Below are positions 29,730 to 54,271 of a stretch of 64,000 bases of DNA, in pieces. The first letter of the stretch is position 1; every line of letters starts with the position of its first letter. Source of the DNA: Candidatus Magasanikiibacteriota bacterium. Lineage in GTDB: Bacteria > Patescibacteriota > Patescibacteriia > Magasanikbacterales > UBA922. The stretch lies in assembly GCA_041674805.1 (NCBI GenBank), contig JBAYVA010000001.1:262612-326611 (forward strand). The letters are read 5' to 3'. Both the position numbers and the translations under genes were made by a program. Under the pieces are notes generated by a model. That model made no database searches and was not told where the DNA came from. It saw only the letters and a list, made by a program, of their open reading frames with translations.

Positions 29730-31478
29730 TCAAGCCATAAAACCACCAACTTGAATATCCCACAAATTACGATAAATACCATTTTTTTTCTTCAAAAGTA
29801 CTTTGTGTGAACCTTGTTCAAGAATTCCACCTTGCTCTATCACCAAAATTCTATTTGAATTCATAATAGTTGAGAGTCTATGTGCGACGATAATGACAGT
29901 CTTGCCTTTCATCAGATTTCCCAAAGCATCTTGGATAAGCTTTTCTGACTTAGAATCTAGACTAGAAGTCGCTTCGTCCAAAATCAAAATTGGAGAATTT
30001 TTTAGTATTGCTCGAGCTATAGCTACACGCTGTCTTTCACCGCCCGAAAGTTTGATACCTCTTTCTCCTACCAAAGTATTGTAACCATCTGACAAATTCA
30101 AAATAAAATCATGAGCATTGGCTTGCTTGGCAACGGACATCACTTCTTCATCACTAGCGTCTGGTTTGGCATAACGAATATTTTCCATAATACTTCTATG
30201 AAAAAGCATCGGATCTTGTGGGACAAGACTGACATTTTGCCACAAACTTTCTTGAGTACACTTGGCAATGTTTTGTCCATCTATCAGAATTTTTCCACCA
30301 GAAATATCATGCTGACGTAAAAGCAATTTTACAATCGTAGACTTACCTGCACCTGACGAACCAACCAAAGCTATTTTTTCTTGAGGTTTGATTACCAAAT
30401 CCATTTTTCTAATTATTTCTCTAGTTTTGTTATAAGCAAAAGAAACATCTTTGAATTCTATTTTACCTGTGGTAACTTGTAATTTTTTGGCATTTTTAAC
30501 ATCTTGTATATCATAAGGCATATTTAGTATTTCGGTCATCTCTTCAGCGTCAGCCAGTGACTCATAAAAATCTCTAATCACACGACCAAAGCCAAAAAAC
30601 TTTTCAAAAATAATAATAAGATAAGATTGAATCAAAATAAAATCACCAACTGTAATACTACCAGCTTGCCAAACTTTGACAGCATAAAACAACATCACGA
30701 TTTCCAACAAAATCATCAGCATCCATTGTACACCATCAAACCAAGTAGAAATGTCCCAAGAAAATTTTCTTATTTTCCTTAGATCTTCTGTTTTTTGTTC
30801 AAATTCATTACACTCTCTACCATAACCAACCAACAACTTTACATTGGTATTATTAGTAAAAGAATCAGCCAAAAAAGCTCCAACTTTAGAATCAAGCTGG
30901 CTTCTCTCAAAATCATATTTTAATTTGAATTTACTAAAAAAGTAACTAGTCAAAACAAAGATGAATATCCAAGAAAGTATTATTAAAGCAAAAAATTTAT
31001 TACGACTAAATAAGACAATAGAAATAAGTGTAACATTGACAATGATAGGCAAAAGATCCCAAATTATTCTATCTGAAATTCTATCAAAAGCTTGTACAAA
31101 TCTACCAACTTTTTTTACCAGAGAACCTACAAAACTGTTGTTGAAAAAAGAAAAAGAATGTTTGTGAACTTTGGAAAAACAAGCATCATTCAAATCTTTT
31201 AGACTATCTGTACTAAATTTTATGTACAAAAAAGCCATGACACGAATAAAAAACCAATGTGAAATTTTTATACCCAAAATAATAAATAATGTGGTATAGA
31301 GAATCTCAACATTAGGATTGGTAGACAAGACATCAAAAAACTTTTTGTACCAATAAGGAGCCAATATTGAAAAAGCATCACCAATCAATAACAACAAAAA
31401 CATAGACATAAAGCTCCATTTGTATTTCCAAGCTTGTTGCCAATAAATTTTCAAAGTTATTTTGGTATTATTTTTCAT
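29730..31478 (-). CDS. ABC transporter, fused permease/ATPase (exporter type, MsbA-like)
   Basis: N-terminal 6-TM domain. NBD with GSSGAGKST, LSGGERQRVAIARAIL and ILILDEATSSLD. The track ORF begins with TTG; ATG at MKNNTKI is the likely start. Confidence 0.9.
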   Translation of the reverse strand: MKNNTKITLKIYWQQAWKYKWSFMSMFLLLLIGDAFSILAPYWYKKFFDVLSTNPNVEILYTTLFIILGIKISHWFFIRVMAFLYIKFSTDSLKDLNDACFSKVHKHSFSFFNNSFVGSLVKKVGRFVQAFDRISDRIIWDLLPIIVNVTLISIVLFSRNKFFALIILSWIFIFVLTSYFFSKFKLKYDFERSQLDSKVGAFLADSFTNNTNVKLLVGYGRECNEFEQKTEDLRKIRKFSWDISTWFDGVQWMLMILLEIVMLFYAVKVWQAGSITVGDFILIQSYLIIIFEKFFGFGRVIRDFYESLADAEEMTEILNMPYDIQDVKNAKKLQVTTGKIEFKDVSFAYNKTREIIRKMDLVIKPQEKIALVGSSGAGKSTIVKLLLRQHDISGGKILIDGQNIAKCTQESLWQNVSLVPQDPMLFHRSIMENIRYAKPDASDEEVMSVAKQANAHDFILNLSDGYNTLVGERGIKLSGGERQRVAIARAILKNSPILILDEATSSLDSKSEKLIQDALGNLMKGKTVIIVAHRLSTIMNSNRILVIEQGGILEQGSHKVLLKKKNGIYRNLWDIQVGGFMA

Positions 31479-31502
31479 AAGTAATTTATTTTTTTTGCAA
31501 TA

Positions 31503-31548
31503 AAAAAACGTCAATAGTATTATACACCTTTTGACGTTTTTTTAAAAT
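31503..31548. terminator. bidirectional intrinsic terminator-like hairpin
   Basis: aaaaaaacgtcaa-N16-ttgacgttttttt. Confidence 0.5.
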
Positions 31549-31792
31549 AGTTTTTTTAAAAAATAAAAAACAATAATAAAAAATAATTATTGTTTATCTT
31601 TAAAATCTTATAATTATTATTTACAAAATAAATTATAAAAAATTCAAATTACAATAATTAACAAATCTTTTGTCAAAATCAATCTAAATTTTTGTTTCAA
31701 AAAACCAAAACTTAGATTGATTGAGACGACGTACCTCCTTTGTTAAAGTAATCTCAATCCTCCTTTTGTTCTTCTTTTTTTTCGATGAGCCC

Positions 31793-32215
31793 TCACAATG
31801 GGGGCTTTACCGAAGAATGGTGTTGAATGGCTCTGCCAAACACCACCACAAAGCTGAACCGAGCTACAAGAGGATGATCGGAACCCTCCACTTTAAACTC
31901 GTATATACCAGACGTAACAAAAATAAACAGAAAATTATGATGCACTTCTTCGACTACTCGGCACTGTGGCCGCTTAGCCAAAAAGTGAATCATATACATC
32001 AAAACGCCTTCATGCGTTTTGATGTGTTGACCACAAAAAGTTGGAAGAAAAGAGATACTACGTAGGTGATAAAGTCTGCAAACAGTCTTGATATCTCCAC
32101 TGTTCACAGCACCAACCCACCTCCCTAAAAAAGCTGTATTGCGCCGCCACGACTCTGTCGCGGCAGCTACAAATAAAAACAACACCAAGAAAGGCACTGT
32201 TGCCAAAAGATCCAC
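31793..32215 (-). CDS. candidate 140-aa protein with hydrophobic N-terminus, GC-rich (putatively acquired)
   Basis: GTG start 5 nt after AGGAGG, downstream of a TTGACA-N17-TATGAT promoter. Begins MDLLATVPFLVLFLFVAAATESW. No homology recognised, and an antisense ORF also exists. Confidence 0.3.
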   Translation of the reverse strand: MDLLATVPFLVLFLFVAAATESWRRNTAFLGRWVGAVNSGDIKTVCRLYHLRSISFLPTFCGQHIKTHEGVLMYMIHFLAKRPQCRVVEEVHHNFLFIFVTSGIYEFKVEGSDHPLVARFSFVVVFGRAIQHHSSVKPPL

Positions 32216-32233
32216 CTGGACCTCCTAGAAATG

Positions 32234-32440
32234 CGACTTCACAACGTGAGAACTTCTCACGCCATTCAGTCGCTGGTTTCTATCTAAAAAATAGACAAAA
32301 ATCAGCAACTGAATTTTTTGGCACGCACAAAATCATACTCTCCGACATATCCACTGTCAATTACTATATCCTTGACAGAGTGTAATTTGTCGTTCTATTT
32401 GTAAAAGTTCTCTATACAAAAAAATACACCTAATTTAATA
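32234..32440. repeat. direct repeat copy 1 (~205 bp) of the promoter/leader/terminator module
   Basis: Near-identical to 32648-32850; read directly. Confidence 0.9.
32332..32360 (-). promoter_or_regulatory. sigma70-type promoter P1 (TTGACA-N17-TATGAT); the -35 lies in a TTGACA-N7-TGTCAA palindrome
   Basis: On the minus strand: ttgacagtggatatgtcggagagtatgat. Confidence 0.5.
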
Positions 32441-32455
32441 GATGTATTTTTTTTG
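32416..32455 (-). terminator. intrinsic terminator ending the P2 transcription unit (usable on both strands)
   Basis: aaaaaaatacacct-loop-agatgtattttttttg. Confidence 0.55.
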
Positions 32456-32500
32456 CCCCTCCTTTCCTCCTTTGTGTATGTGAATGGTTGGGCAATTACC

Positions 32501-32629
32501 TCAAGCGGATCCCCAATAGCGGGAATCTCCACCTGAAGCCCCTGATTTCCGGCGGCTGTTTAGCCAGCCGGAAACCATCAACAACACAATGACGGGAGAC
32601 ACTCCCGCCAAAAACTCCAAAAAGCTCAT
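32501..32629 (-). CDS. candidate 42-aa hydrophobic peptide (single TM helix plus basic tail)
   Basis: GGAGG-N5-ATG; MSFLEFLAGVSPVIVLLMVSGWLNSRRKSGASGGDSRYWGSA. Downstream of promoter P2 and the conserved leader. Confidence 0.3.
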   Translation of the reverse strand: MSFLEFLAGVSPVIVLLMVSGWLNSRRKSGASGGDSRYWGSA

Positions 32630-32647
32630 GTGAGCCTCCGAAACGGC

Positions 32648-32850
32648 GACTTCGCAACGTGAGTACTTCCCACGCCATTCAGTCGCTAGTTTCTATCTAA
32701 AAAATAGACAAAAATCAGCAACTGAATTTTTTGGCACGCACAAAATAATACTCTTTGACATATCCACTGTCAATTACTTTACCCTTGACAAATTTCAATT
32801 TGTCGTTCTATTTGTAAAAGTTATTTATATAAAAAAATACACCTATTTTC
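32648..32850. repeat. direct repeat copy 2 (~205 bp)
   Basis: Near-identical to 32234-32440. Confidence 0.9.
32744..32772 (-). promoter_or_regulatory. sigma70-type promoter P2 (TTGACA-N17-TATTAT)
   Basis: On the minus strand: ttgacagtggatatgtcaaagagtattat. Confidence 0.5.
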
Positions 32851-32866
32851 TAGGTGTATTTTAATT
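32835..32866 (-). terminator. intrinsic terminator of the ArsB/NhaD permease gene
   Basis: On the minus strand: aaaatacacctagaaaataggtgtattttttt. Confidence 0.6.
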
Positions 32867-32881
32867 AATTTATTTTAATTT

Positions 32882-34156
32882 CTAAACAAGATAACGTAAG
32901 AAAATATAGACAGTACACATCACCAAAGCTACAAAAGTCAAAGGTAATGCCATCTTCATATACTCCCAAAAACCAATACCATGACCTTCTTTACTAGCAA
33001 TACCACTTACTACAACATTGGCTGAAGCACCAACCAAGGTCGCATTTCCACCAATATCAGCACCAAGAGCCAATGCCCACCAAATTGGTGCCAAAGGTAA
33101 TCCAGCAATAGTTCCCAAATCTTTGACAAGTGGGATCATAGTAGCTACAAATGGAATATTATCAATTACAGCTGAAAATATAGCTGAACCCCACAAAACA
33201 CTCAAAGTAGTAGCTGTCATGTTTCCACCAGTAAGATTTAGCAAACCTTCAGCCAACATACGAATAGCGCCAACTTCTTCTAGAGCTACAACCAAGATGA
33301 AAAGTCCCATGAAGAAAAATATTGTAGTCCATTCTACTTCTTTCAAATGTTCTTCTGGATCATGCATGGTCAAAAGCAACATAAGAGCAGCACCACCAAG
33401 AGCGATAGTAGCACCTTCTAAATGAGTTACACTATGGGTAAAAAATCCAACCAAAACTATAGCTAAGACAAACAATGCTTTTTTTAGTAATTTTACGTCA
33501 GACAAAGCTTCTCTTGGGTTGAATTTTGCGATAGTAGCTTGTGCTTCTGCAGTAGCCACAAGTTGCTTGCGATAAATAAAAACCAAAAGACCAATAGTGA
33601 CAGCAGAAATAAGTAAAGAAATAGGAGCAAGATTAACCAAAAAATCATTGAAAGTAAGTCCACTAGCACTACCAATCAAAATGTTTGGTGGATCTCCGAT
33701 AAGAGTAGCTGTACCACCAATATTGGCCAACAAGATTGCGCCTATCAAAAATGGCTTAGGGTGAATTTTCAAATTATGAGCAACCACAAAAGTGACTGGT
33801 ATCATAAGAAGTACAGTTGTTACGTTGTCGAGTAAAGCAGAAAAAACAGCAACAATAGACAATAATAATATGTATATTTTTACAGGGTTACCTTTACCAA
33901 CTTTGGTAGCCCAGATAGCCACATATTGAAACATACCACTGTGTTTGGCTATTCCCACAATAATCATCATACCAATCAAAAGGCCTAGAGTATTGAAGTC
34001 AATCCCCTCAATTGCTTTTTCTTGTGTCACAATACCAAGCAAAACCATCAATCCAGCACCAGCCATAGCAATGACAGTACGATGAATTTTTTCAGAGATG
34101 ATAATAGCGTAAGTAGTAATAAAGACGACAAGTGTAATCCAAAAAAAGATTCCCAT
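32882..34156 (-). CDS. ArsB/NhaD-superfamily (SLC13/CitMHS-like) anion/ion permease
   Basis: 424 aa, polytopic. Has LLDNVTTVLLMIPV and IGGTATLIGDPPNILI motifs. Confidence 0.7.
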   Translation of the reverse strand: MGIFFWITLVVFITTYAIIISEKIHRTVIAMAGAGLMVLLGIVTQEKAIEGIDFNTLGLLIGMMIIVGIAKHSGMFQYVAIWATKVGKGNPVKIYILLLSIVAVFSALLDNVTTVLLMIPVTFVVAHNLKIHPKPFLIGAILLANIGGTATLIGDPPNILIGSASGLTFNDFLVNLAPISLLISAVTIGLLVFIYRKQLVATAEAQATIAKFNPREALSDVKLLKKALFVLAIVLVGFFTHSVTHLEGATIALGGAALMLLLTMHDPEEHLKEVEWTTIFFFMGLFILVVALEEVGAIRMLAEGLLNLTGGNMTATTLSVLWGSAIFSAVIDNIPFVATMIPLVKDLGTIAGLPLAPIWWALALGADIGGNATLVGASANVVVSGIASKEGHGIGFWEYMKMALPLTFVALVMCTVYIFLRYLV

Positions 34157-34837: not shown

Positions 34838-36412
34838 CTATAAGTCATTTCCCGTATATGACATATTAAAACTCTTATTAATTAGAGGAAAATCAGGGAT
34901 TATATTGTTTAAACCAGCCTCACCCAAGGCTGACCAATTGACGAAAGAAGGATCTCTTGGAAATACTCTACTAATATTGCCTTGTGCGTCTGTAGCTACG
35001 AAATAGGCTATTTCTCCACGCCAACCTTCCACCATACTTACAGCGTAAGCACTTTTTTGCAAAATAAGGCTAGTAATATTGGCTACAATACTTTCTCCCT
35101 CAGGTATTTTTTGCAAAGATTCTTGTATTATTTCCAATGATTTACGAATTTCTTTTAGACGAATTTGAAATCTAGCATTGACATCACCATCTTCTTCTAC
35201 AGGTATTTGACCCATAGAAACTTCGGCGTAAGCAGCATAAGGATGATCTACGCGTGTATCATGTTTTACACCTACTGCACGGCCAGCAACACCCAGAGTA
35301 CCTTGATTATTAGCCACTTCAAGAGAAATGATACCAGTACCCTTCAAACGATTTAATACAGAAGCACTATTTTCAGCAATATCAACAACTTCTTCAAAGT
35401 CTTTACTAATATCTTTGAGGATTTTATTTAAATAATCTTTGTTTTCATTAGTTATATCTTTCTTTACTCCACCAACAACATTGACTTGGCGCAAAAATCT
35501 ACTGCCTGTTATTTTTTCATTTATTTGCATCATCATTTCACGCAAACGTCCACCATGAGCTCCACCAAAACTAAAACCAGTATCCATCATAATAGCCCCA
35601 ATATCACCAAAATGATTAGCCAATCTTTCAAGTTCAGCAAAAATGGTTCTCAAATACAAGGCACGTTTTGGAACATTAGTTCCTGCCAATTTTTCTACTG
35701 TCTGACAAAAAGCTAAGGAGTGACTAAAAGAACTATCACCAGAAATTTTTTCTGACAAACGTATTTTATTTTCCAAAGACAAAACTTCAAATAATTTTTC
35801 ACTACCTTTGTGAACATACCCCAAACGTGGCTCAAGTTGTACGATACTTTCTCCAGCCATACTAAAACGAAAATGACCAGGTTCGATAATACCAGCATGA
35901 ATTGGACCAACAGGAATTTCATAAATTCCCTCACCTTTTACTTCTTGAAATTCATATTTACCAGTCACTTCTTTTAATTTAGTTTTCCATTCAAAATCTT
36001 TTCTAAGAGGAAAAACATTACTTGGATAATTTTCATGCAAAATAAGTGGTCTATTGTCTGGAATATCTGTAGCTACTAGACCAAAGAAAGTCTGAATTCT
36101 TCTTTCGTAGTTTAATATTTCAGGTACAATGTTAGCCAATGAAGGAAACTCAGTAGTATTTTTCAATTCAATAAAAGGACAGATAAAAAAATCATCACCA
36201 GGTACAGCAAATAAATACCAGATTTTGAAAGCTCCTTTTTCTTTTCTTTCGTCTGTAGCGGTAACCAACTTAAGTGAAAGCTTTTTTTGATTATGTAACT
36301 CTCCAACAATTTCAGCTATTTGTGAAGAAGTTACTTCGAAGATAGCCAAATTATCATGATACTCTACATTAGCATTCTTTGGAAAGTATGATTGTATTTT
36401 TTCTTTTATCAT
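34838..36412 (-). CDS. fused NuoC/NuoD-like (HycE/HyfG-like) large subunit lacking [NiFe]-ligand cysteines
   Basis: N-terminal 30-kDa-like domain plus GPIHAGIIEPGHFRF, where [NiFe] hydrogenases have RxCGxCxxxH. There is no C-terminal DPCxxC. Confidence 0.75.
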   Translation of the reverse strand: MIKEKIQSYFPKNANVEYHDNLAIFEVTSSQIAEIVGELHNQKKLSLKLVTATDERKEKGAFKIWYLFAVPGDDFFICPFIELKNTTEFPSLANIVPEILNYERRIQTFFGLVATDIPDNRPLILHENYPSNVFPLRKDFEWKTKLKEVTGKYEFQEVKGEGIYEIPVGPIHAGIIEPGHFRFSMAGESIVQLEPRLGYVHKGSEKLFEVLSLENKIRLSEKISGDSSFSHSLAFCQTVEKLAGTNVPKRALYLRTIFAELERLANHFGDIGAIMMDTGFSFGGAHGGRLREMMMQINEKITGSRFLRQVNVVGGVKKDITNENKDYLNKILKDISKDFEEVVDIAENSASVLNRLKGTGIISLEVANNQGTLGVAGRAVGVKHDTRVDHPYAAYAEVSMGQIPVEEDGDVNARFQIRLKEIRKSLEIIQESLQKIPEGESIVANITSLILQKSAYAVSMVEGWRGEIAYFVATDAQGNISRVFPRDPSFVNWSALGEAGLNNIIPDFPLINKSFNMSYTGNDL

Positions 36413-36413
36413 A

Positions 36414-37859
36414 TTAGTATTGCAAAACAGCATTATTAATTAAAGTCTGCAAAAATGGTGGTAAATAAACACTCAAAATAACTATAATAGTAACAAATAA
36501 AATTTGTGGAATAAACAACCAAATATTATTTTCACCTTTTTCAATATTGTCTGGTTTTTCTCCAAAAAACATAGCTGTAAAATGTTTCAAAAAACTTACA
36601 AAAACTAAGGCGAGAAAAAATAAAGCAATCAAACTAACAACAGGATAATCTTTTATACCAGCTGACAAAATATAAAGCTTGGTCATAAACATACCAAATG
36701 GTGGTACACCTGTCACAATCAGAAAACCAATAAGGGAGAGTACACCAGTCACAGGCAAGACTTTCAAAGCTCCTTTGACATTGAAAATTTTGGCAGAACT
36801 ATATTTTAATAACAAATTTCCTGAAGATAAAAAGAGTACAACTTTGACACAAGAATGATAAACTAAATGGAGTATGGCTGCAAAAATACCTAATCCTCCA
36901 AAACCAAAACCAAGTGCCATTACACCAGCATTTTCAATACTAGAATAAGCAAGCAATCTTTTGTAATTTTTGGCATTGAACATAATCAAAGCTGAGACAA
37001 CGATAGACAATAAACCAAAAACAATCAATAGAGTTTGACTAAACAAAGTTCCAACTGCAGTGTCTACAATAACTTTGTATCTAAGCATAATCACAAAAGC
37101 AATTGGTAACAAAGCGCCAGATAACAAAGCGCCTATAGGTGCTGGCGCTTTACTATAAGCATCTGGTTTCCAAGTGTGCATTGGAACAAAACCAATCTTA
37201 GTGCCATAACCAATAAGTACAAAAACGAAAGCAATCTTAGCAAGTAATGGATCAAGATGAACAGCATTGTTAGTCAATGTCTGCCAATCTACCAAACCAG
37301 CACTAGATAAATCAATAGAAGTAAAAAATAATAAAGTTCCAAAAAATCCCAAAAGTAAGCCAACAGAATTGATAATCAAATATTTCCAAGCTCCTTCAAT
37401 TGCTGATGGTTTATTGTAAAAACTTATCAAAAAGGCAGTAGACAGTGTAGTAGCTTCAATAGAAATCCAAGCAAAAATAGGATTACTAGAAGTAATTGCC
37501 AAAAACATTGCCACAAAAAACATATTCAACAAAACAAAATATTGTTTTACACGTGTAAAACCAATAATATTTTTTTGCATTTCTTGACGTAAATATTGTA
37601 CAGAATAAATAGTAGTAGCAAAACCAACAAAACCAAGAACTAAGACGATAATGGCACCCAAAGAATCAATTGAAAAGAATCTTCCAGAACCTGGTATATA
37701 AATTCCTAATGAGGCCACTTTCAAAGCTACAACAATAGACAATACCAAAGAAATTAACGAAGAAACAACTGAAACAACTTCAATAACGACCTTTCTTTTA
37801 GAAAGAAGGTTTATTATAGCTGCAATAAACAAAGTTATTATTATAAAAAAAATTTCCAT
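36414..37859 (-). CDS. NuoN/HyfF-like proton-conducting antiporter-type membrane subunit
   Basis: 481 aa with about 14 TM helices of the NuoL/M/N fold (WKPDAYSKAPAPIGALLSG). Confidence 0.7.
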   Translation of the reverse strand: MEIFFIIITLFIAAIINLLSKRKVVIEVVSVVSSLISLVLSIVVALKVASLGIYIPGSGRFFSIDSLGAIIVLVLGFVGFATTIYSVQYLRQEMQKNIIGFTRVKQYFVLLNMFFVAMFLAITSSNPIFAWISIEATTLSTAFLISFYNKPSAIEGAWKYLIINSVGLLLGFFGTLLFFTSIDLSSAGLVDWQTLTNNAVHLDPLLAKIAFVFVLIGYGTKIGFVPMHTWKPDAYSKAPAPIGALLSGALLPIAFVIMLRYKVIVDTAVGTLFSQTLLIVFGLLSIVVSALIMFNAKNYKRLLAYSSIENAGVMALGFGFGGLGIFAAILHLVYHSCVKVVLFLSSGNLLLKYSSAKIFNVKGALKVLPVTGVLSLIGFLIVTGVPPFGMFMTKLYILSAGIKDYPVVSLIALFFLALVFVSFLKHFTAMFFGEKPDNIEKGENNIWLFIPQILFVTIIVILSVYLPPFLQTLINNAVLQY

Positions 37860-37863
37860 ATTT

Positions 37864-38511
37864 TTAATCTTTTAATTTTTTCATTGAAGAAACATTTAGT
37901 GTTCCAAAATGTTTATACAACATTGAAATAAAAATTGAGGCAATCATAATCCAAATAAAAATATTAAAAATAATTCCCAATTGAAGAGAAGCCGACTGTT
38001 CCAACTCAGCAAAAACAGCAAACAACACAATACTATTTTCAAAAGACAAAATACCAATAATTTGTGACAAAGCACCTTTACGATTGACTATCAAAAATAA
38101 AGAAAGAAACATCGATGATAAAGCAAGAGACAACAACATTTGATGATCTGGTACGATACTAGTCAAAGGAACAAACTTATGTGAATGAGCTATAAAAATT
38201 AAAACAGCAATAACAATTAAGGTAATTGGTGTATTTAAATAAGTACTAACAGAAAAAGACAGAGCATACTTTTTGATCAGACTAATAAAAAACTTTGGTG
38301 CCACAATAACTTTGACAATCAACATCACAAATATAACTAATAACATCCACAAATCTTTGGTCTCAAAAAAAGAATTCAACAATATAATAACAACTACTAA
38401 TGATTGTAAAGCATATGCATATACAGCTGAAAAGTTTTTCTTCATTATCAGCAAAAAGACAACAGATAATAGAACTATCTCAGATAAAAATTGTAAAGTT
38501 AATAGATTCAT
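37864..38511 (-). CDS. HyfE-like membrane subunit (NuoK-related)
   Basis: 215 aa. GILSFENSIVLFAV...HFGTLNVSSMKKLK parallels the E. coli HyfE C-terminus (MENGSHLVL...HGTLDVNNLTALK). Confidence 0.65.
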   Translation of the reverse strand: MNLLTLQFLSEIVLLSVVFLLIMKKNFSAVYAYALQSLVVVIILLNSFFETKDLWMLLVIFVMLIVKVIVAPKFFISLIKKYALSFSVSTYLNTPITLIVIAVLIFIAHSHKFVPLTSIVPDHQMLLSLALSSMFLSLFLIVNRKGALSQIIGILSFENSIVLFAVFAELEQSASLQLGIIFNIFIWIMIASIFISMLYKHFGTLNVSSMKKLKD

Positions 38512-38544
38512 AAGTTATCACTATAAAAAACAAAGTTAGATGTT

Positions 38545-39480
38545 TTATTTAATTGAATAAATAAGTCCAATTGCCACAACATTGAAAATAAAAGAAATAA
38601 ATAATAAATCTGGCAATCTGAAAAATCTAAATTTAGCAATAGTTGATTCTAGCACAGCAATAGCACCACAAAATAAAAATATTTTTATTAAAAAATAAAA
38701 AATACTCAAAAATATTGCAGTAAATCCAACATTAGTATCAAAACCAAATGGAAAAAATAAATTAGCACCAAGTACCATAAAAATAAGTAATTTGTTGGCA
38801 GCAGCCCATTCCATAAGTGCCAAACGTTTACCAGAAAATTCCAAAATCATAGCTTCATGCACCATAGTCAATTCCAAATGAGTTGATGGATTATCAAAAG
38901 GAAATCTAGCATTCTCAGCTAACAAAACAATGAAAAAACCACAGAAAGCAAGTATTGCTGGCAAAAAGTATTGACCACTAATTGATTGACTAAAGTTTGC
39001 AATGTCAAAAAGGTTACTAGAACCAGCTATCAACGCCATAGTTAAAAGTGAAAAAATGAAGCCTCCTTCAGCCAAAGCTGAAATAGTCATTTCACGACTT
39101 GAACCAAAACCACCAAAAGCACTACCAGTATCGACACCAGCCAAAGCCATAAAAAAAGTACCAATAGCTAAAGTATAGACAACAAATAAAATATCACTAG
39201 TAACAAAACCTGCAATAAGTGGAAAAAAAATAGGTATACTAAAGCCAACCACCAAAGTTACAGCAAAAACAATATAAGGAGTAAATCGAAAAACCCAAGA
39301 AGCATCATTACTTATAACTTCATCTTTATGTAAAAGTTTCCAAATATCTCTATAAGGTTGAAAAATATTGGCACCTTGACGATTTTGTAACTTAGCTTTT
39401 ATTTTTCTAATGATACCAATACACAAAGGTGACAACGCTGGTACAAAAAATAATTGGATTATCCAAATAAATATTGACAT
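38545..39480 (-). CDS. NuoH/HycD-like membrane subunit
   Basis: LLAENARFPFDNPSTHLELTMVHEAMILEFSG matches the NuoH signature E..R.PFD..E.ESEL. Confidence 0.75.
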   Translation of the reverse strand: MSIFIWIIQLFFVPALSPLCIGIIRKIKAKLQNRQGANIFQPYRDIWKLLHKDEVISNDASWVFRFTPYIVFAVTLVVGFSIPIFFPLIAGFVTSDILFVVYTLAIGTFFMALAGVDTGSAFGGFGSSREMTISALAEGGFIFSLLTMALIAGSSNLFDIANFSQSISGQYFLPAILAFCGFFIVLLAENARFPFDNPSTHLELTMVHEAMILEFSGKRLALMEWAAANKLLIFMVLGANLFFPFGFDTNVGFTAIFLSIFYFLIKIFLFCGAIAVLESTIAKFRFFRLPDLLFISFIFNVVAIGLIYSIK

Positions 39481-39484
39481 AAAA

Positions 39485-40291
39485 TTATAATATTACGAGT
39501 AGAGCTAGCATAAGAGCTACAAAAATATAAGTGATATAAAGATCGATATTACCATTCTGTATAGTCTTAGCTTTTACAGATAACTTATTGATTACTATAT
39601 GTATAGGTTGATAAAAGTAAGTATTGTATATATTACTAATACTCAAAGTGATTGTTCTTGATTTTGGTAAATATCTATTTTGATCATCATAATATTCAAT
39701 GTTATGTTGAATAGTTGGTTTGAGTAAACCTTTGAAAATCAATATTATTGATCGTGAGAATCCTGTAGCTGTTATTTCAGCACGTGGAGTAAGATCTGTA
39801 CCACAATCCCAAGTATTGGTCTTACATTCTTTTTGTGTTTTGTTAATTACTTTTTTGAAAATTAAAATTACCAAAAAAGTAGAAACCACAAGCAAAAGAA
39901 AAATAAACATACCAGAGATTGAAGAAAATCCATTAGAAACACTCATACTTTGATTAGAAGAAACATTTACAGCAGAAGCTGAATCTTTGAAGATGCTCAA
40001 ACTTTGACTTATGATATTGATAAGACTAATTACATATCCAGAAAATATACCAAACAAAAGTGTCAACAATGCTAAAGCACCCATACCTAAACGCATAGAA
40101 AAAGGAGATTCTTTGGCATGTTTCACTTCCTTACTACGTGGACGAGCCAAAAAAGTAGCTGCAAAAGCTTTGACAAAACAAGCAAGTGCTAATCCCCCAG
40201 TAAATACCAATGATCCTGCTGCCAAAATAAATATCCATTGTGTTACAAAATGCATTTGATTTATTCCTTGAAACAAAGCTTGGTAAGTCAA
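39485..40291 (-). CDS. membrane protein, possibly the split C-terminal part of the NuoL/HyfB-like subunit
   Basis: Overlaps the upstream NuoL-like ORF by 4 nt (ATGA). 268 aa with TM segments. The two ORFs together total about 680 aa, similar to HyfB. Confidence 0.4.
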   Translation of the reverse strand: MTYQALFQGINQMHFVTQWIFILAAGSLVFTGGLALACFVKAFAATFLARPRSKEVKHAKESPFSMRLGMGALALLTLLFGIFSGYVISLINIISQSLSIFKDSASAVNVSSNQSMSVSNGFSSISGMFIFLLLVVSTFLVILIFKKVINKTQKECKTNTWDCGTDLTPRAEITATGFSRSIILIFKGLLKPTIQHNIEYYDDQNRYLPKSRTITLSISNIYNTYFYQPIHIVINKLSVKAKTIQNGNIDLYITYIFVALMLALLVIL

Positions 40292-41535
40292 CCACTCACT
40301 AAAAAACCATTAAACGGTGGCAAGGCAGAAATAGCAATTGAACCAATAAGAAAGAAGAAAGCTGTTTGTGGCATGTACTTTATTAGACCACCATATTCCT
40401 CCATATTACGAGTATGTACTTGATTTATTACTGACCCTGCACTCAAGAAAAGTAAAGCCTTGAAAATAGCATGATTAAGTGTGTGAAATAAGGCTGCACC
40501 AAGGCCAAGCAAAGCCAAAGCTGGTAAATTTAGAGAATAAAAAGTCAAAGCACTGCCCAAACCAAGCAAGATAATACCAATGTTTTCTATACTATGATAA
40601 GCGAGCAATCTCTTGATATCATGCTCAGTAAGAGCATACAAAACTCCAAGTAAAGATGAAATTGAACCAATCACTAATATTACTAATCCCCACCAATATG
40701 GTGCTGGAGCAAGAATGTCCAAAAACAATCTTACCATCATATAGATACCAGTCTTAATCATGACACCTGAGAGTATTGCTGAAACATGAGAAGGGGCAGC
40801 TGGATGAGCGGCTGGTAACCAAATATGCAATGGAATAATACCAGCTTTCAAGCCAAAACCAATAAAAGCAGAAACGAAAATAATATTTTTTATAAATGCT
40901 GGAACAAGAGCTATATTTTCTTTTATCACTAGAAAATCAAAAGAACCAATATACTTAAACAAAAGCAAAAAAGCTAAAATAATAAAAGCTGTACCAATAT
41001 AAGTCATCACCAAATACAAAAAACCTGCCTTTACATTATCTTGATCATTTTTTTCATAAACAATCAAGAAATATGAAGTCACCGCCATTATTTCCCAAAA
41101 AATAAGGAAAAAAAGAGCATTAGAAGATGTTACTACTAAAAGAACACTTGCAATAAAAATATTATAAAAAAATCCAAGAGCACCTATGCTATATTTTTTA
41201 TAGTAATGTCTTATGTAACCTATACCATATATAGAACAAAACAAAGCTATCAAAGAAATTACAAAAACAAAAAAACTAGACAACAAGTCAATATGAAAAG
41301 ACAAAGTGAAAAGTGAAAAAACAGATGTTTTTAGGTCAAACAACAAACTACTTTTTGTTAAAATTGATGTAATCGAAAAAATTAAACCCCATAAAGAACC
41401 AACAATCGCAAAAAAACTATTCCAACCATTTGCGTATTTATCATTTTTGAGGAAAAACAAAGAACCAACAGCTCCAACAAAAAATAAGGAAAGTAAAATA
41501 AAAAAGCTAATTGGTGAGGTAATGATTTCTAACAT
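40288..41535 (-). CDS. NuoL/HyfB/HycC-like antiporter-type membrane subunit (N-terminal part)
   Basis: NuoL/M/N core motifs (LHTLNHAIFKALLFLSAGSV, WLPAAHPAAPSHVSAILSGV). Confidence 0.7.
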   Translation of the reverse strand: MLEIITSPISFFILLSLFFVGAVGSLFFLKNDKYANGWNSFFAIVGSLWGLIFSITSILTKSSLLFDLKTSVFSLFTLSFHIDLLSSFFVFVISLIALFCSIYGIGYIRHYYKKYSIGALGFFYNIFIASVLLVVTSSNALFFLIFWEIMAVTSYFLIVYEKNDQDNVKAGFLYLVMTYIGTAFIILAFLLLFKYIGSFDFLVIKENIALVPAFIKNIIFVSAFIGFGLKAGIIPLHIWLPAAHPAAPSHVSAILSGVMIKTGIYMMVRLFLDILAPAPYWWGLVILVIGSISSLLGVLYALTEHDIKRLLAYHSIENIGIILLGLGSALTFYSLNLPALALLGLGAALFHTLNHAIFKALLFLSAGSVINQVHTRNMEEYGGLIKYMPQTAFFFLIGSIAISALPPFNGFLVSG

Positions 41536-49611: not shown

Positions 49612-49764
49612 TTATTTAACAAATTTGTTGTGAATAATAGTAACTAGACAAAATTTGGCTAAAACTTCAGTCTGCCTTGGGCAGATTAGAAACGCCATCA
49701 GTTTATCACTATGACATATGCTGTCAATCTGACTACCCTTGACAAAGCTACAAAACATGTTCTA

Positions 49765-49792
49765 AGTAAAAAACTTCCTTTTTAGGAAGTTT
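49765..49792 (-). terminator. intrinsic terminator (bidirectional hairpin) after 49804..50889
   Basis: aaaaaacttcct-tttt-aggaagtttt. Confidence 0.55.
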
Positions 49793-53913: not shown

Positions 53914-54018
53914 AAAATTATTTATTTGTAATATATAAGTTTGGTGAGGAGACAATGCCGAGGGTAGAAACACTGTCAACCTCCTTTGAACCCTACAGCG
54001 ATTGTTTGGCTGTACTAC

Positions 54019-54216
54019 TTAGTCAGCCATTTCATCGTTGGGGGGATCACACGAAGTAGCCGAGAACGCCTCGACATCATCGAAGTGTACTGTACAACCC
54101 TGGCAACGATAGTAAAGCACACGCCCCTTCTTCGTTCCCTGAGGAGTCTCCCTTACAGCTTCATAACCACCATCATACCCGCAAACAGCACAGGTAAAAT
54201 TTGAATCCATCGGCAT
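54019..54216 (-). CDS. small C4 zinc-ribbon protein (66 aa), GC-rich relative to the genome
   Basis: AAGGAG-N7-ATG; MPMDSNFTCAVCGYDGG...YRCQGCTVHFDD (CxxC-N17-CxxC). Local GC is about 50%, against roughly 30% background. Confidence 0.5.
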   Translation of the reverse strand: MPMDSNFTCAVCGYDGGYEAVRETPQGTKKGRVLYYRCQGCTVHFDDVEAFSATSCDPPNDEMAD

Positions 54217-54271
54217 TGCCAATCTCCTTATTTTTCCCCTCGCCAAACATATATATTTATATTTATAATAA

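Follow-up and report, generated by a model that had tools for sequence, protein, structure and literature searches.

A duplicated promoter–leader module and a putative iota-carbonic-anhydrase-like gene in a GC-rich island of a Candidatus Magasanikiibacteriota genome

Phage morons are autonomous promoter-gene-terminator units of deviant composition, inserted between genes that adjoin each other in relatives. Type I toxin–antitoxin loci encode small hydrophobic peptides on long, structured mRNAs, and in fourU thermometers the Shine-Dalgarno (SD) sequence is held in a hairpin. In a review of the iota-carbonic anhydrases, PDB entry 3H51 is treated as a member of the class, and the hallmarks of the class are given as a C-terminal (H)HHSS motif together with T106, Y124, S199, and H197 in AspCA numbering (PMC8425729). 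Likenesses to all four are found in a GC-rich island of about 1.2 kb located between an ABC exporter gene and an ArsB/NhaD-type permease gene of a Candidatus Magasanikiibacteriota genome, which belongs to the candidate phyla radiation (CPR). Coordinates refer to the window, that is, the whole stretch of 64,000 nucleotides analyzed here (assembly GCA_041674805.1, contig JBAYVA010000001.1, forward-strand positions 262,612–326,611). Among named genomes, the nearest is Candidatus Magasanikbacteria CG10_big_fil_rev_8_21_14_0_10_36_16, whose permease is 90% identical, and NCBI lists the proteins of the window itself under Candidatus Magasanikbacteria. As judged from sequence, the island is probably a moron-like, horizontally exchanged cassette for an iota-carbonic-anhydrase-like gene, whose 5′ control region occurs twice and would also drive an orphan open reading frame (ORF).

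In 200-nt sliding windows, the GC content of the island reaches 0.44–0.535, compared with a mean of 0.307 for the 64-kb window. The GC content at third codon positions (GC3) is 0.42 and 0.58 in the two island ORFs and 0.20 ± 0.04 (maximum 0.27) in the host genes, while the cassette alleles of related strains range from 0.49 to 0.71. Signals for translation initiation differ as well. Among the 58 host genes of at least 100 aa in the window, not one carries an SD-like tetramer at positions −20 to −4, whereas AGGAGG/GGAGG is found 5 nt before the GTG (32215) and ATG (32629) start codons of the island ORFs, and eight of the 25 GGAGG pentamers in the window are located in the island, all on the minus strand. 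A literature search on SD use in CPR bacteria returned nothing directly usable. The most conspicuous feature of the island is a pair of direct repeats of 204 nt that are 92% identical (about 218 nt at 90.8% when one gap is admitted), the likeness of which stops about 10 nt inside the ORFs and includes the first 3–4 codons. The initial annotation, made from the sequence alone, had described a GC-rich island with direct repeats of about 205 bp, each a minus-strand promoter and leader module placed before an SD and one of two ORFs of 140 and 42 aa, in a window where most genes lack an SD. All of this is borne out, the last point in a stronger form than proposed, and three or more independent assemblies contain the repeats. 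As judged from its elements, each unit would be transcribed autonomously, from its own predicted promoter to a terminator-type hairpin after its ORF.

Such an abrupt change in composition raises the question of whether the arrangement is genuine, and an assembly chimera or contaminant junction had been named at the outset as a possible undoing of the interpretation. The composition of the island is sharply unlike that of its flanks, and two short-read assemblies end inside the repeat, namely the Logan assembly of SRR6484325 (L002), which is identical to the window from the permease into repeat copy 2, and that of SRR22315507 (L111), which runs from repeat copy 1 through to the ABC gene. However, the full arrangement recurs in independent ENA, NCBI, and JGI assemblies: the window is identical to the 744-kb ENA contig ERZ27247358:k141_1563332 (L001), the entire island is present at 99.6% identity in NCBI GCA_028687045.1 (L110), and a 474-kb JGI contig encodes both island ORFs. 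The junctions are also common to relatives holding partial versions, and the chance that the island is an artifact is therefore negligible. Gene callers and the NCBI annotation place no gene in the island, and the protein accessions of the ABC exporter, the permease, and the neighboring CBS protein are consecutive; an exact look-up of both ORFs in a contig index gave no record. An integron cassette, retron, CRISPR, tRNA, and tmRNA were considered and rejected, with no attC-like site, integrase, or tRNA present in the island.

The initial annotation had assigned no ORF of the island to a family. The 140-aa ORF, however, is assignable through its homologs to the NTF2-fold SgcJ/EcaC / CaMKII_AD family. 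Its residues 28–138 align with an annotated DUF4440 protein from a metagenome-assembled genome of Ignavibacteriaceae at 39% identity (E 4e-7 in the database search and 2e-19 pairwise). The homolog in the related strain L137 is above the cut-off for Pfam CaMKII_AD (47.9 bits), DUF4440, and SnoaL_3, as well as for NCBIfam TIGR02246 (49.5 bits). Used alone, the window protein gave an E value of 0.036 against 3H51 and matched no NCBIfam model. A profile of six sequences, comprising four Magasanikbacteria alleles, the near-identical L110 copy, and the Ignavibacteria homolog P0002, aligned with 3H51 over its full length (E 1.3e-22) and with the Bigelowiella iota-carbonic anhydrase 7C5X (E 6.6e-8). 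In the window protein, the corresponding residues are T59 in FLPTF, Y74, and H132-H133-S134-S135 in IQHHSS (residues 130–135). The T, Y, and HHSS columns are invariant in all six aligned sequences, with T59, Y74, H132, and S134 aligned to the LPT, Y, and HHSS of 3H51 and IQHHSS to its INHHSS, and these four residues would correspond to Thr106, Tyr124, His197, and Ser199 of AspCA. An AlphaFold model built on a two-sequence alignment is poor (predicted local distance difference test score, pLDDT, 47.5), and its helix and strand order alone fits the NTF2 fold. The protein is thus classified, by homology, as NTF2-fold and iota-carbonic-anhydrase-like, with a putative enzyme activity. Its hydrophobic residues 3–19, which are followed by WRR, form a segment that the alleles of the relatives do not have.

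Upstream of each ORF, the repeat carries a promoter/operator module, referred to as module P (Table 1). Both predicted sigma-70 promoters agree with the consensus at 11 of 12 positions in a promoter scan, TTGACA-17-TATGAT (32360–32332) in unit 1 and TTGACA-17-TATTAT (32773–32745) in unit 2, as the initial annotation had proposed. The palindrome TTGACA-N7-TGTCAA that it placed at the −35 box is exact in copy 2, but copy 1 reads TGTCGG in the second half. The AT-rich stretch of each copy holds inverted TGTCAA/TTGACA half-sites that form a dyad overlapping the promoter, and this dyad, TGTCAA-N11-TTGACA, is kept in all module copies. Module P is also conserved in the related strains L127 and L137 (nhmmer E 1e-16 to 1e-22). 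The 3′ module of the cassette is kept in L007 and L137 (nhmmer E ~1e-28), with one compensatory pair in its hairpin. Matches to CRISPR-DR21 and snoRNA models over 31664–31765 were dismissed as this 3′ hairpin scoring by chance. The terminator hairpin that follows the permease gene and opens repeat copy 2 is kept after the permease in L007, L127, and L133.

The leader of each unit is about 108 nt long and has a strongly strand-specific structure. The predicted minus-strand fold consists of a 22-pair hairpin, a hairpin of 8–9 pairs, and a hairpin enclosing the SD and the start codon. Its minimum free energies are −49.7 and −46.0 kcal/mol in the two copies, with z-scores of −6.7 and −4.7 against shuffled sequence, and the leader hairpins described earlier are thus real. 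The plus strand reaches only −33.5 and −30.8 kcal/mol, about 15 kcal/mol worse. In the first two helices, the copies differ at two stem positions, both times by a change from G-C to G-U on the minus strand that would be an A-C mismatch on the plus strand. A run of 58 nt, which starts where the −10 hexamer ends and extends to the long hairpin, is identical between the copies (permutation P = 0.002). In the third hairpin, GGAGG pairs with a C/U-rich stretch in codons 2–4, and the start codon lies in the loop. Four of the eight pairs of this helix differ between the copies, two by double compensatory changes and two by exchange of GC and GU, and all remain paired, compared with 42–49% in slid controls. 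The pairing is kept although the codons involved specify different residues. The leader of L127 is unrelated in sequence but has the same SD/start hairpin design.

It could be argued that such a leader opens its SD/start hairpin in response to a ligand or to temperature, as a riboswitch or as a fourU-like thermometer. The strong and conserved three-helix fold and the invariant stretch of 58 nt are consistent with this idea, and the GGAGG is paired mostly through G-U and A-U with a U-run, a type of pairing that resembles fourU thermometers. Nevertheless, a sensing RNA is very unlikely. No Rfam family was matched at any threshold, with nothing at the E-value threshold over the region or at the gathering score across the whole window, and the best sub-threshold matches over the leader were chance microRNA and snoRNA models of 17–25 bits. 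In L127 and L137, the cassette has shorter leaders of unrelated sequence, the predicted stability of the hairpins extends over 10 to 45 °C, the U-run is part of the ORF and not upstream of it, and an aptamer cannot be demonstrated from two sequences. Some 15–50 nt after each start codon there is also a terminator-like hairpin whose tail is rich in U and G (32590–32610 and 32178–32201, minus strand); it could be a translation-coupled attenuator yielding RNAs of about 158 nt, or it could be a mere by-product of hydrophobic codons.

Related loci, reached through homologs of the permease and the ABC exporter, show a patchy distribution with five states. In L133–136 (permease identity 88%) and L137 (82%) the site is empty, and the ABC gene follows the permease terminator after 129–181 nt. 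L127–132 and L138 (96%) hold a single cassette with the same promoter module, an unrelated and shorter leader, an SD, and a 113-aa homolog (GC3 0.61), followed by an AT-rich gene of 456 aa. L007 (90%) retains a remnant without the promoter, the leader, and the N-terminal third, in which the 3′ hairpins are kept. The duplicated form is found in the window, L110, and L111. In L137, a cassette is present at another site, between nuoCD and a CBS gene; its promoter is almost identical to that of the window (TTGACAGTGGATATGTCGGAGAGTATTAT), its leader is short, and its 124-aa homolog (GC3 0.71) is followed by the double hairpin that also forms the 3′ end in the window. Both end modules of the cassette are well kept (nhmmer E 1e-16 to 1e-28), and the proteins are only 31–34% identical to one another. 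Each insertion starts close behind the terminator of the host gene upstream of it, at a distance of a few to about 35 nt. Between positions 31400 and 33400, the window and L110 differ at nine sites (99.6% identity) while their flanks are about 95% identical, which fits a recent recombinational import of this block. Five of the nine differences fall within codons 11–33 of the 140-aa ORF (V11A, V16L, W33C, and one synonymous change).

We regard the island as foreign and mobile because its composition and SD use are unlike those of the host, relatives have an empty site or a cassette at another site, and the block shared with L110 is far more similar than its surroundings; the earlier suggestion of horizontal acquisition gains support from the same evidence. 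The flanks consist of core genes (nuo-like genes, CBS, permease, ABC exporter, and an AddB-type helicase). No PHROG match and no similarity to phage, plasmid, or viral contigs were found for the island. At the permease–ABC junction of other strains, AT-rich genes without a family are located, one of 456 aa with an N-terminal helix (L127, 7019–8389) and one of 150 aa (L007, 7846–8298). Since these other strain-specific genes occupy the same junction, it is a general hot spot for accessory genes.

The location of the control module also bears on its origin. A third, degenerate promoter/operator core is found in the window, over whose 64 kb module copies were searched. This weak partial match directly follows the terminator of a DUF4037 gene, and the promoter of the atp operon (TTGACG-17-TATAAT) lies about 110 nt farther downstream. 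It has no −10 hexamer, leader, or ORF; the leader homology at this position is not significant (P 0.04–0.06). This copy upstream of the atp operon may suggest that the 5′ module is a host operator of an ion and energy regulon and not part of a mobile cassette, the carbonic-anhydrase-like genes having merely been captured behind it. In line with this, all copies are co-oriented with host genes and lie beside genes of ion transport or energy functions (the permease/CBS pair, nuoCD, and the atp operon), and the TGTCAA-N11-TTGACA dyad persists in every one of them. However, at two of the three locations the module precedes a GC-rich foreign gene of one kind, joined to one and the same 3′ module. 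Furthermore, relatives that retain the neighbor genes have an empty site, and the third copy, having lost the −10 hexamer, drives no gene. A host regulon is thus an unlikely origin of the module.

Table 1. Coordinates of the island, its control elements, and related features in the window.
Feature	Positions	Strand	Details
ABC exporter gene	29730-31478/31514	minus	
3′ module of the cassette	31672-31765	minus	two AAGGAGG; hairpin H1 31759-31719; long terminator-type hairpin H2 31727-31672
140-aa ORF	31793-32215	minus	hydrophobic residues 3-19; putative NTF2-fold, iota-carbonic-anhydrase-like domain, residues 28-138
5′ leader, unit 1, and first codons	32205-32325	minus	long hairpin 32314-32264; short hairpin 32263-32243; SD/start hairpin 32226-32205
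Direct repeat copy 1	32233-32436	minus	terminator, operator-like dyads, promoter, leader, SD
Promoter/operator module P, unit 1	32332-32397	minus	CTGTCAA 32378-32372; −35 TTGACA 32360-32355; −10 TATGAT 32337-32332; predicted start near 32325
Terminator hairpin ending the 42-aa unit	32418-32453	minus	part of repeat copy 1
Two SD-like AAGGAGG, 3′ untranslated region of the 42-aa unit	32458-32472	minus	
42-aa ORF	32501-32629	minus	one hydrophobic helix, then WLNSRRK; orphan; 53% GC
5′ leader, unit 2	32630-32738	minus	long hairpin 32727-32677; short hairpin 32676-32656; SD/start hairpin 32639-32620
Direct repeat copy 2	32646-32849	minus	terminator, operator-like dyads, promoter, leader, SD
Promoter/operator module P, unit 2	32745-32810	minus	TAGAAC; TGTCAA 32790-32785; −35 TTGACA 32773-32768; TGTCAA 32760-32755; −10 TATTAT 32750-32745; predicted start near 32738
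Terminator hairpin of the ArsB/NhaD permease gene	32834-32862	minus	from terminator scan; opens repeat copy 2
ArsB/NhaD-type permease gene	32882-34156	minus	
Third, degenerate promoter/operator core	49709-49770	minus	TAGAAC..CTTTGTCAAGGGT..ATTGACAGCATATGTCA

The ORF of unit 2 is more difficult to place. The 42-aa peptide has a mean hydropathy of 2.32 over residues 3–19, followed by NSRRK, and this layout parallels the N-terminus of the 140-aa protein, in which a hydrophobic helix is likewise followed by W and RR(K). A search of 5.8 billion clustered proteins returned only the identical sequence, and one of 1.84 billion representatives returned only the peptide itself and a spurious tandem-repeat protein; no Pfam, NCBIfam, or PHROG match was obtained. 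The whole unit-2 transcript is predicted to be strongly structured (z = −9.6), and the GC content by codon position (0.47, 0.56, and 0.58) reveals no clear coding periodicity. The ORF may encode a small membrane peptide, or it may be the stump of an earlier allele.

In the latter case, unit 2 would be a functionless, dead remnant of a cassette allele that once joined a signal anchor to an enzyme domain, left behind by an internal deletion or recombination. This is a possibility to be taken seriously, though we doubt it. In relatives, cassette ORFs have been replaced or eroded, as seen in the truncated remnant of L007 and in alleles of 31–34% identity, and the orphan state of the 42-aa ORF, its lack of clear codon periodicity, its layout parallel to the 140-aa protein, and the absence of called genes from the island all speak for a stump. 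However, the unique region of unit 2 is unlike any cassette allele at the nucleotide or protein level. Local DNA alignments of the 42-aa region with four alleles were no better than those with shuffled sequences (P 0.19–0.60), and a search of its six-frame translation with the family hidden Markov model found nothing. In addition, the SD/start hairpin of unit 2 is intact through compensatory changes, its promoter keeps 11 of 12 consensus positions, and it has its own terminator, features that are unlikely to persist unused.

A peptide of this kind had led the initial annotation to suggest a type I toxin–antitoxin or antisense system. In such a system, the 42-aa peptide, and perhaps the helix of the 140-aa protein too, would be a membrane toxin and an antisense RNA ending at a plus-strand hairpin would be the antitoxin. 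The peptide is of suitable size (42 aa, below 60) and has a single hydrophobic helix with a basic tail, a conserved hairpin sequesters its SD and start codon, and the unit-2 transcript is highly structured. The unit is also duplicated in tandem, which is common at type I toxin–antitoxin loci. The plus-strand hairpin followed by T6 that had been reported is indeed present at both copies (32264–32320 and 32677–32733). Nevertheless, the idea is improbable, because a consensus scan found no plus-strand promoter-like site between 31942 and 32900, the TTGACA boxes of that strand either point away from the leader or lead into the bidirectional terminator, the scan did not recognize the plus-strand hairpin as terminator-like, and the structure favors the minus strand: the plus-strand RNA folds markedly less well, and the stem differences between the copies keep pairing on the minus strand only. 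Furthermore, the peptide has no homolog in the billions of proteins searched, and the identical control region also drives an enzyme-like gene. Of the initial interpretation as a whole, the foreign and mobile nature of the island, the promoter–leader module, and the autonomy of the units gain support, whereas the toxin–antitoxin proposal is unsupported and the absence of any assignable gene is wrong.

Several observations weigh against a mobile carbonic-anhydrase-like cassette. The 140-aa ORF alone scores 17.6 bits on Pfam CaMKII_AD (cut-off 22.1) and has three deletions relative to its homologs, and the L110 copy carries W33C at a conserved tryptophan, because of which the gene may be decaying. 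The window allele and the L007 remnant differ with a dN/dS of 0.36, compared with 0.075 for the permease (dS 1.09 and 0.75, respectively), and look orthologous but fast-evolving. The statistics on leader structure are based on just two leader copies, and no further copy was found outside the strain group in metagenome DNA, viral contigs, phages, or plasmids. All 23 matches of TTCAGTTGCTGN{20,36}AGCGACTGAA in metagenome DNA were chance matches inside unrelated coding DNA, and a scan of viral contigs with GCGACTGAATGGCGTG and a blastn search of the island against phages and plasmids yielded only chance 16–40-mers. No recombinase, target-site duplication, or terminal repeats were found at the island, and the core upstream of the atp operon could make the 5′ module an element of a host regulon.

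On balance, a horizontally exchanged cassette still appears the best account of the island. On the minus strand, the cassette would begin with an operator-like dyad overlapping the promoter, followed by the structured leader, the GC-rich gene of the NTF2-fold protein, and a 3′ hairpin with a terminator. In this strain, the protein has an additional N-terminal signal-anchor-like helix, and in this lineage the terminator, the promoter, the 108-nt leader, the SD, and the first 3–4 codons are present twice, probably through recombination within the shared 5′ module, so that the upstream copy of the control region would drive the 42-codon ORF. A repressor may act at the dyad, the SD/start hairpin may hold translation down until it is opened, and the long 5′ hairpin may stabilize the mRNA. 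The cassette itself may move by homologous recombination. More speculatively, and in our opinion unlikely to hold, such loci could represent recombinase-less CPR expression cassettes of an undescribed kind, in which the conserved ends serve as homology arms that swap GC-rich ORFs behind host terminators and hairpins gate the SD in genomes whose own genes lack one; the cargo would then be divergent iota-carbonic-anhydrase-like alleles and a small membrane peptide.

If the cassette interpretation is correct, tiny, AT-rich, SD-free CPR genomes keep and exchange small autonomous foreign units that rely on the SD. CPR ribosomes would then still be able to use the SD, and the locus would be a natural test case for translation initiation in these uncultured bacteria. 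An iota-type carbonic-anhydrase-like gene as variable cargo beside an ion permease and a complex-I-like cluster would also offer a clue to how Magasanikbacteria handle inorganic carbon or pH. The case bears on annotation practice too, since three pipelines placed no gene in this 1.2-kb stretch despite at least one recognizable gene.

The complex-I-like cluster itself (34838–41535, minus strand) is located beside the CBS-domain protein and the permease and comprises a fused NuoC/D, NuoH, and several Proton_antipo_M subunits, which is unusual for a CPR genome; it could be functionally linked to the carbonic-anhydrase-like cassette. On the other side of the island, directly upstream of the ABC exporter start, is an inverted repeat with 17-nt arms (AAAAAAACGTCAA...TTGACGTTTTTTT, 31501–31546), which has a TATAAT box in its loop and lies within a spacer of 13–19% GC. 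The relatives share a conserved sequence before the ABC gene, and that of the window is unlike it. A second GC-rich islet, with up to 0.53 GC, is found on the minus strand at 53921–54257. Its ORF (54019–54216) encodes 65 aa with CxxC...CxxC zinc-ribbon-like motifs and only weak zinc-ribbon-type Pfam and NCBIfam matches, is preceded by AAGGAG, and is followed by CAAAGGAGG-TTGACAGTG, the same motifs as in the main island. Each of the three GC-rich ORFs has the sequence (C)AAAGGAGG 15–45 nt past its stop codon (31734–31765, 32458–32472, and 53980–53986, minus strand), with no start codon at usable spacing after this motif, save possibly GTG 53973, and four of the six AAGGAGG heptamers of the window are in the island. 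In many host genes, a TATAAT-like box lies about 10–17 nt before the ATG, which suggests leaderless or very short-leader host mRNAs.

Compared with type I toxin–antitoxin loci (hok/sok, tisB/istR, fst, and sprA1), the island shares the small hydrophobic ORF, the long structured mRNA, the sequestered SD, and tandem repetition, but no antisense promoter was found, the structure is specific to the mRNA strand, the peptide is an orphan, and the same leader drives an enzyme-like gene. As in SD-occluding hairpins and fourU thermometers, the SD is paired by G-U and A-U with a U-run and the start codon lies in or beside the loop. Unlike in fourU thermometers, the U-run is located in codons 2–4 instead of the 5′ untranslated region, and the hairpin has a predicted stability of −8 to −12 kcal/mol at 37 °C and more in the cold, which argues against simple melting. 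With the iota-carbonic anhydrases (TIGR02246, PF08332; 3H51 XcaCA, BteCA-iota, 7C5V, and 7C5X), the window protein shares a putative single NTF2-fold domain of about 115 residues, the C-terminal HHSS, and the conserved Thr (LPT), Tyr, and His/Ser positions (PMC8425729). It differs from them in scoring below the family cut-offs, in its three deletions, in a hydrophobic N-terminal segment without a basic n-region, and in sister-strain alleles that are only about 32% identical to it. Like phage morons, the island has its own sigma-70 promoter and terminator, a GC content unlike that of its neighbors, and a position between two genes that are adjacent in related genomes. Unlike them, it is chromosomal with no phage genes nearby, its conserved 5′ and 3′ ends surround a highly variable ORF, and its control region is duplicated.

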